In this document: piece after piece, positions 613-2,355 of the stretch
How the letters are laid out: each line of letters starts with the position of its first letter
Numbering within the stretch: the stretch's first letter is position 1
From: Escherichia coli
GTDB lineage: Bacteria; Pseudomonadota; Gammaproteobacteria; Enterobacterales; Enterobacteriaceae
Assembly (NCBI RefSeq): GCF_003334405.1
Contig: NZ_QOWM01000037.1
DNA length: 2,355 nucleotides
Direction: 5' to 3' (one strand)
Position numbers and translations under genes: made by a program
The notes under the pieces: generated by a model
Databases searched by the model: none
The model's input: the letters and a program-made list of their open reading frames with translations, nothing else
What the model was told of the DNA's origin: nothing

Positions 613-819
613 TTAGTGTACGTACTTCCAGACGCCGGAAGGCACCTTATCATAAAGTTTATTCATCACCAGTTCTGCTCGGCGATGATCTGCGGCAGAA
701 TAAAATGCCTCTGATTCTGATAAAGGCAGCTTGTAACAGTTAATCTCAATAACTTTTTCAAGAGTATCTCTTGATGTACATTTTCTTAACTGAAAAAGCC
801 ATTCCTGCTTTGTTTTCAC
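613..819 (-). CDS. hha: Hha/YmoA-family nucleoid-associated modulator (H-NS co-repressor family), 68 aa, GTG start
   Basis: Translation [68 protein letters not shown] matches, along its whole length, my recollection of E. coli Hha (..[54 protein letters not shown]). Start codon is GTG (817..819 on minus), preceded by an AAGGG Shine-Dalgarno-like sequence about 7 nt upstream; an in-frame TAA two codons upstream excludes a longer N-terminus. Stop TAA at 613..615. Confidence 0.88.
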
Positions 820-2355
820 TTCTTAGCCCTTGCCGGAAAACCCAGCTTCCCTGTTTTCTTATCCTCAAGGACAAGAACTGTATCATACGTTCCACCACTT
901 TTCTTTTTAAATCCCTTAATCAAATCGGTTTTCCCTGATTTAACCAGTTTTTCGGCCTGTGCCTGGGTGATTTTCTTACCAGAAAACTCACTCCAGATTT
1001 TAAATTCACATCCGGTACAGAAATAACCTTTCGGCCTGATAACAATATGTTTACCACAGGAAGGGCAGGGAGAGTCCAGGCGTTGAAACTGCCCTGCTGG
1101 CGCAGCGGGTTCAATCTTCATCTCGCCCAGGTCAACATCAGAAATCATGCCTGTTAGTTCACCGTACAGATCATTAATAAACTGTTCAACCGTCAGGTCG
1201 CCATTTTCTATGGCAGCCTGCTTTTCAGACCATAATGCTGTCATATCAGGATTAACCGCTATACCAGGCAGGGCATCAATAAGCGCATATCCGGTATCAG
1301 TAGGAATAAGTTTCCCTTTTTCCAGCGTGATATAGTTTCTTTTCTTCAGCGTTTCCAGAATGGCTGCGCGGGTAGCTGGCGTACCAATGCCACCATGTTC
1401 ATCTTTTTTGTCTTTATCCTTATCCTTCAGTAATTTTTTTATCACTGGATCAGTGACAAAATCCGCGACACGAACAAGCGCAGCAAGCAAGGAGGCTTCG
1501 GTGAATAACGGCGGCGGTGTTGTTTTCTTCTCATTAACAATAACTTCTTTTGTCGTCAGTGTTTCTCCTGTGCGAATTTTACAGAGCAGTTCAAAAGCGG
1601 AATCATCATTATCTTCTGATTCACCTTCGTCTGTGGTTTCCGCGCCAATAAACGCCTCAAATCCGCTGTCAGTTGTTTTTCTGGCACGGGCATAGAACGA
1701 CTCATCACCACACTGAATGGCAACCGATACTTCCTGGTATGCTTTTTCAGGCATGAACTGAACAAGATAGTGTTGTGCGATCGCCAGGTAAACATTGCGC
1801 TCGTCGGTGCTGAGTGCGTTAACATCAGGCACACTGGCGGTAGGGATTATCGCAGTATGCGCAGTCACCTTTGCACTGTTAAACGCTTTGCTTTTACGTG
1901 AAGAATCAATATCCAGCGACTGAGGAAAGACTGATTTCAGGGCATCGATAACCTGCGGCGCTTCGCTGAATTGTTCATCAGAAAGATATGAGCAATCAGA
2001 GCGGTTATAAGTAATCGCTTTATATTTTTCACGTAATTGTTGCGTAATATCCAGCGTTTTTTGTGCCGTCATTTTGAACTTTTTGTTCATGTATTGCTGG
2101 AGTCTGACCAGGTTAAACGGCAACGGCGCAGCCGTTTTTTTATCATCAGTTGCTGCCGCTTCAACTGTAGCCGGTTTTCCTGCAAGGGATGCTGCCGTTC
2201 CGTCTGCCCACGCTTTATCAAGTAATTTACGGTCTGTCAGCGGAGCAAATTCCCCTGGCTTCCAGTTCGCCCTGATAACATCAGCACCACGCTGAAAAAC
2301 TCCGGTCATGGTGTAGTAAAAACTGGATTTATGGTTCTGGTTAGCACGGGTACGA
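816..2355 (-). CDS. topB: DNA topoisomerase III-like (type IA topoisomerase), partial: N-terminal part including the Toprim domain lies beyond the right edge of the window
   Basis: Minus-strand ORF 816..2309 (497 aa from the first in-window ATG) stays open in the same frame from 2310 to the window edge (no stop in codons 2310..2354), so the gene is truncated by the window. The translation carries the Topo III-type active-site motif [12 protein letters not shown] (catalytic Tyr codon at 2007..2009), the conserved type IA motif GIGTPATRA (1365..1391), and a C-terminal C4 zinc-ribbon CPSC-x13-CTGC (1008..1067) followed by a Lys-rich tail. Stop codon TGA at 816..818. Confidence 0.9.

Follow-up and report, generated by a model that had tools for sequence, protein, structure and literature searches.

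How is a small plasmid gene translated when its start codon overlaps the stop codon of the gene before it? The question is raised by a locus of Escherichia coli at which the end of topB, which encodes a topoisomerase, overlaps the GTG start of an hha-like gene in the arrangement GTGA. The original prediction, made from the DNA letters, was that Hha production is probably tied to ribosomes finishing topB, and that this tie would hold the small modulator at a set ratio to the topoisomerase. IncX4 plasmids are major carriers of mcr-1, and conjugation and fitness cost are under the control of plasmid H-NS/Hha proteins. We analysed a stretch of 2,355 nucleotides (the window) in which the three relevant genes, topB, the hha-like gene and an hns-like gene, all lie on the minus strand.

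The genes of the locus

The window belongs to a plasmid backbone: across all 2,355 bases it is 100% identical to the E. coli plasmid NZ_CP070012.1, which is typed as IncX4, and it has matches of 95-99% in more than 750 further plasmid records. Its gene order, topB-hha-hns, also found in IncX1 and IncX5, is that of the 'gem' (gene expression modulation) region of IncX plasmids (PMC5868456; PMC5023117), a name that originates from pOLA52 (cited in both of these papers). With identical genes in the identical order on an IncX backbone, the locus is that region and differs from it in nothing. Among publications on IncX or IncX4 plasmids with hha and topB, some describe the gem region and others deal with plasmid H-NS, and we found none on the overlap, the GTG start or coupling.

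The window carries the 3' two-thirds of topB (816..2355, minus strand), which runs past the window end; the corresponding open reading frame spans 816..2309 and terminates at 816. The full-length protein of 717 aa, taken from the coding sequence in the identical plasmid NZ_CP070012.1, scores 625.5 bits against NF005829 (cut-off 597) and 533 bits against TIGR01056 (cut-off 515.75), and by these models it belongs to type IA DNA topoisomerase III.

The hha-like gene (613..819, minus strand) encodes 68 aa between its GTG start and a TAA stop at 615-613. Its product, named 'hemolysin expression modulator Hha' in RefSeq (WP_032233318.1), reaches 107.1 bits against NF008191 (cut-off 90), covering residues 3-67 of 68, and the same residues align with residues 2-66 of YmoA, 7-71 of Hha and 2-70 of Cnu (E = 7e-23 to 7e-9). 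In size, too, it conforms to this family of single-domain proteins of about 67-72 aa, and it can be aligned end to end with the solved members, chromosomal Hha, YmoA and Cnu/YdgT (PDB 1JW2, 2K5S, 2JQT), with which it has the fold family in common. The family models and alignments unambiguously identify the small protein as a member of the Hha/YmoA family of H-NS co-regulators. Its N-terminus is four residues shorter than that of E. coli Hha and one residue longer than that of YmoA. Unlike chromosomal Hha, YmoA and Cnu, it is encoded on a plasmid, lies behind topB and starts with GTG. Both identities given in the original prediction, topB and Hha-like, were thus borne out by curated models passed above their cut-offs.

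Seventeen nucleotides downstream of hha lies an ATG-started gene of 154 aa (131..595, minus strand), called by PGAP an 'H-NS family nucleoid-associated regulatory protein'. Its match to NF008193 (E = 5.5e-31) stays under the equivalog cut-off, which marks a family member rather than chromosomal H-NS; the protein matches both the H-NS and the StpA models without reaching their equivalog cut-offs, which is what a plasmid paralogue should do. H-NS is a known partner of Hha (PMC11796372), members of the Hha/YmoA family binding the N-terminal domain of an H-NS-family protein, and on the circumstantial evidence of its position the product of this hns-like gene is likely the binding partner of Hha. 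The 17-nt hha-hns spacer contains a strong Shine-Dalgarno sequence for the gene, AAGAGGA at 604..610 (minus strand), with a duplex energy of -5.8 kcal/mol.

The start codon of hha

At the junction, which reads GGCAAGGGCTAAGAAGTGAAAACAAAG on the minus strand, the topB frame ends ...AGG GCT AAG AAG TGA and the hha frame runs ...GGC AAG GGC TAA GAA GTG AAA ACA. The topB stop TGA (818-816) therefore overlaps the hha start GTG (819-817) in the GTGA at 816..819, just as had been read from the sequence, and PGAP agrees: on NZ_CP070012.1, where the overlap is identical, RefSeq places hha at 14415-14621 and the topoisomerase at 14618-16771. Since the hha frame contains a TAA two codons upstream of the GTG (823..825, minus strand), a longer Hha is impossible, in agreement with the earlier argument from this stop codon at 825-823. 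Downstream, the first in-frame ATG, GTG or TTG is a GTG at codon 51, followed by the ATG at codon 52 to which the prediction had pointed; a start there would remove most of the fold. Within the gene, residue 3 is where the alignments with the family model and with the structures begin, and an ATG stands at the homologous codon in relatives, namely pLG24p3, the hha of R721 and IncI2, and two metagenome-assembled contigs. It is thus well supported, as far as sequence evidence can show, that Hha starts at GTG 819-817.

These observations confirm the RefSeq start (GTG, 68 aa) as correct for the Hha of IncX4 and IncX1. The overlap and the GTG start were already known, being part of the RefSeq annotation of hundreds of records, and they have little significance beyond correct annotation.

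Nor is the arrangement unusual. Among the 38 same-strand neighbour pairs of NZ_CP070012.1, nine overlap by any length and five by exactly 4 nt, and 3 of the 41 CDS of this plasmid start with GTG. A distance of -4 nt is by far the commonest unidirectional gene distance across 1,695 prokaryotic species (PMC10666635), and in most prokaryotic groups overlaps are found in about 15% of co-directional pairs (PMC6728339). The GTGA arrangement is unremarkable, no more than what chance or genome habit gives. A -4 overlap is the default compact arrangement, and its regulatory meaning may be nil.

Junctions behind topB in other plasmids

An exact copy of the 50-nt junction is present in 655 plasmid records; when matches of 90% or more are counted, the number rises to 915. 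Because the sequences of the roughly 900 plasmids with a GTGA junction are nearly identical, their agreement reflects recent common descent and not independent conservation.

Among more distinct plasmids the spacing takes several forms. The distance from topB to hha is -4 nt (GTGA) in IncX4, in the IncX1 plasmid pOU1114, in Citrobacter pIsolateG_D and in E. coli M8 plasmid C; it is -1 nt (TAATG) in IncX5 and +1 nt (TAAtATG, then AAA ACA) in pLG24p3. The two genes stand 68 nt apart in IncI2 mcr-1 plasmids and in two contigs (L011 and L012), where hha begins with ATG and has its own AGGA 8 nt upstream. This last arrangement, met first in contigs, was confirmed in an annotated IncI2 plasmid (L019). 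When a degenerate DNA pattern of the hha 5' end was scanned against genome contigs, five loci only were recovered, two of them repeating the GTGA junction and three being of the IncI2 type.

Where hha is absent, an hns-like gene takes its place behind topB. The topB-hns distance is then -4 nt (ATGA, 2331-2334) in the Salmonella sp. IncFIB plasmid NZ_OP927722.1 (L020), +6 nt in Arsenophonus (L021), +11 nt in IncX3-NDM (L023) and pE6474.3 (L024), and +44 nt in Proteus (L006). The -4 junction of the IncFIB plasmid has thus come about with another nucleoid-protein gene in the downstream position. R6K is likewise described as being without any hha (PMC11796372).

The prediction of coupling had named in advance a finding that would speak against it, homologous loci with an intergenic gap and an ATG start. 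The alignment of homologous loci divides on this point. The tight junction is kept in the IncX lineages, at -4 to +1, whereas one lineage, IncI2, shows precisely such a gap, of 68 nt, together with an ATG start. In the sequences compared, the IncX lineages as a rule have a tight junction, including those whose junction sequence has changed, and this spacing lends mild support to a functional reason such as coupling. With its 68-nt spacer, ATG and own Shine-Dalgarno sequence, the IncI2 gene, a close homologue, shows that this Hha subfamily can be expressed alone, so that coupling is unnecessary for the family.

Several of these junctions have peculiarities of their own. The IncX5 junction, TAATGGTGAAAACC, places an ATG one codon before the retained GTG, with a one-base overlap with the topB stop. 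In the two IncX5 sequences, L013 and L022, the junction reads TAATGGTG (L013 2496-2503); PGAP calls the ATG, giving the -1 overlap, and the GTG is kept as codon 2. Judged from these letters, the IncX5 start could be either the ATG or the retained GTG.

On the minus strand of R721 (NC_002525.1; about 2390-2530), topB ends in GTGA followed by about nine hha codons (VKAKQKWLF), which are joined out of frame to some 37 codons from the 3' end of an hns-like gene, ending ...QELLQLIAKSGRGRAPKPIAEALAGGRSLDEFLIEK and a stop. This unannotated remnant was left by a deletion in a topB-hha-hns cluster, and R721 retains the GTGA although the hha copy there is destroyed. An intact ATG-started hha (ATG AAA ACA AAA) lies about 930 nt further downstream. 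A second IncI2 plasmid carries a relic like that of R721.

The loci recovered in the contig scan (L008-L012) are near-identical enterobacterial topB-hha sequences of IncX or IncI2 type, yet their contigs are ascribed to Haemophilus sputorum and to MAGs of Lachnospiraceae, Bacillota and 'Proteobacteria'. These taxon assignments most likely reflect contamination or mis-binned plasmid contigs.

Translation of hha

A weak Shine-Dalgarno-like motif, AAGGG (827..831, minus strand), is embedded in the 3' end of topB at a spacing of 7 nt from the GTG, and its anti-SD duplex of -4.3 kcal/mol compares with a range of -2.8 to -11.6 kcal/mol across the plasmid. The energy needed to open the region from -15 to +6 into single strand is 8.07 kcal/mol for hha, rank 29 of 41, as compared with 2.94 kcal/mol for hns and 3.75 kcal/mol for topB. 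Compared with the other genes on the plasmid, hha has a weak initiation region.

The weak Shine-Dalgarno sequence, the GTG start and the TGA/GTG overlap together make reinitiation on hha likely, and we consider that Hha probably arises mainly by termination-reinitiation and to a smaller extent by de novo initiation. On the sequence of events that we propose, topB and hha would be co-transcribed as parts of a topB-hha-hns operon, and a ribosome terminating at the topB TGA would sit directly on the hha GTG. Ribosomes fresh from termination on topB would then most likely begin a substantial share of Hha synthesis, and some independent initiation would add to it. Hha output would be low and would follow topB translation, with no fixed TopB:Hha ratio. 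A scan of the window for promoters and terminators found no terminator-like site on the minus strand between topB and hha, and its counts for both kinds of signal were no higher than in shuffled sequences.

The mechanism proposed here is textbook behaviour of -4 overlaps. Reinitiation works over distances of -8 to +10 (PMC10666635) and drops steeply beyond 10-20 nt (PMC6728339; PMC10666635); the IncX distances of -4, -1 and +1 all fall within the working range. When native E. coli -4 overlaps were studied, four of five were coupled and one, bioF, initiated de novo (Huber et al. 2019, PMC6728339). The co-directional topB/hha pair, overlapping by 4 nt at 819-816, resembles the coupled pairs (PMC6728339; PMC10666635) in strand, in the extent of the overlap, in the Shine-Dalgarno-like motif inside the upstream 3' end and in a host that is E. 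coli or a relative. It differs from them in using GTG rather than ATG. Overlapping pairs are also enriched for subunits of one complex, whereas TopB and Hha form no known complex. The overlap by itself suggests coupling and does not prove it. If coupling is true, whatever reduces topB translation would reduce Hha as well, which would be a small but genuine part of how the gem region is regulated.

A different account, which we regard as possible though rather unlikely, is that hha is initiated independently and the overlap is simply compaction. A 30S subunit would then bind AAGGG-N7-GTG de novo, perhaps in part on hha-hns transcripts made from an internal promoter, and the level of Hha would be set by this weak site rather than by topB translation. 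The 7-nt spacing of the Shine-Dalgarno-like motif is near-optimal, -4 overlaps are frequent in the same plasmid (5/38), bioF provides a precedent among the five E. coli -4 pairs tested (PMC6728339), and the IncI2 relatives, with their 68-nt spacer, ATG and AGGA, use a site of their own. Against this stand the weakness of the motif, the GTG start and an opening energy above the median, as well as the fact that IncX spacing stays at -4, -1 or +1 despite changes in the junction sequence.

The internal promoter that could serve such initiation is a sigma-70 promoter-like match at 882..911 (minus strand), which can be read as TTTAAA-18-TATGAT or TTAAAA-17-TATGAT and agrees with the consensus at 9 of 12 positions. 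It lies inside the 3' end of topB, about 60 nt before the hha start, and from its sequence it could give hha-hns transcripts without topB translation. As an argument for independent initiation it is offset by its frequency, since the window contains 6 promoter-like sites and shuffled sequences contain 4.0 +/- 2.0, so that the match is no more than chance provides. The stretch 882-911 is conserved in pLG24p3, yet it is also constrained by topB coding.

Coupling could also operate through RNA structure, as at atpHA, and we hold this version to be improbable. A hairpin is predicted at 817..880 (minus strand), in which a 5' arm in topB (880-866) would pair with a 3' arm (832-817) that contains the Shine-Dalgarno-like motif and the GTG. 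Under this model the hairpin would block free 30S subunits, and ribosomes translating topB would melt it and so permit de novo initiation on hha. The minimum free energy (MFE) of -28.7 kcal/mol, with z = -2.65 against shuffles, the coverage of both motif and start, and the opening energy of 8.07 kcal/mol are all in keeping with such a role, although rank 29 of 41 makes the last value unexceptional. The pairing of upstream coding sequence with a downstream initiation region is also the feature in which topB/hha resembles the atpHA type.

We folded the homologous stretch from six sequence variants, whose diversity is too low for a covariation test. The hairpin was the MFE structure only in the sequence of the window and IncX1. 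One to a few substitutions were enough to displace it as the MFE fold in the near-identical L005 and L010, and it was absent in L004. For L005, L010 and L016, all close variants, the opening energy was lower, at 4.9-6.2 kcal/mol, and for divergent lineages it was lower still, at 1.3-4.1 kcal/mol. Changes within the hairpin were one-sided, with no compensatory change. A hairpin over the Shine-Dalgarno-like motif and GTG was therefore rejected as a conserved element, its MFE fold being lost and opening energies dropping in the variants. The conserved sequestering structure that characterizes structure-dependent coupling was not found among the homologues, which makes it doubtful that topB/hha belongs with atpHA.

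Finally, programmed frameshifting or readthrough at the overlap could be imagined to yield a TopB-Hha fusion. This idea, in whose favour the frames abut and nothing more, has practically no chance of being correct: it is excluded by the TAA two codons before the GTG, which confines any shift to GAA-GTG, and by CTAAGAAGTGA, in which no slippery heptamer of the form X XXY YYZ occurs; TopB, moreover, ends KK-stop in every lineage examined.

Hha, the topoisomerase and H-NS

The preferred reading, termination-reinitiation with some de novo initiation, does not extend to the further claim that the overlap fixes the ratio of Hha to the topoisomerase. That claim is unsupported. The partner of Hha is H-NS, and coupling by itself gives no fixed ratio (PMC6728339); in the literature searched we found no TopB-Hha complex. 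The hns-like gene is equipped with an AAGAGGA of its own and an ATG, and its initiation region is far more open than that of hha (2.9 vs 8.1 kcal/mol).

A broader version of the idea would be that topB and the Hha/H-NS silencers have been selected for coupled or co-translationally assembled production, forming one physical or stoichiometric module that acts on plasmid DNA topology. The one argument for it is the recurrent tight spacing behind plasmid topB, at -4, -1 and +1 for hha and at -4, +6 and +11 for hns, and we give this version very little credence.

Other features of the region

Many mcr-1 IncX4 plasmids match the window as two pieces, with IS26 under the match. Just downstream of the hns-like gene, window positions 71-120 contain nested near-perfect palindromes built on ACATACGTATGT, with 13-nt arms that are 100% complementary and 19-nt arms that are 89% complementary. 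The palindromes match no Rfam family, and an Rfam scan of the window at E <= 1 returned noise only, far under the gathering scores. They could be a terminator, or a hotspot of recombination or insertion.

Outside the window and upstream of topB, a gene for a protein of 191 aa (L001 5974-6549) ends 4 nt before the topB start. The protein has no match in NCBIfam, and at the homologous positions of other plasmids the annotation is DUF6012. This 191-aa/DUF6012 gene seems to be a constant companion of plasmid topB.
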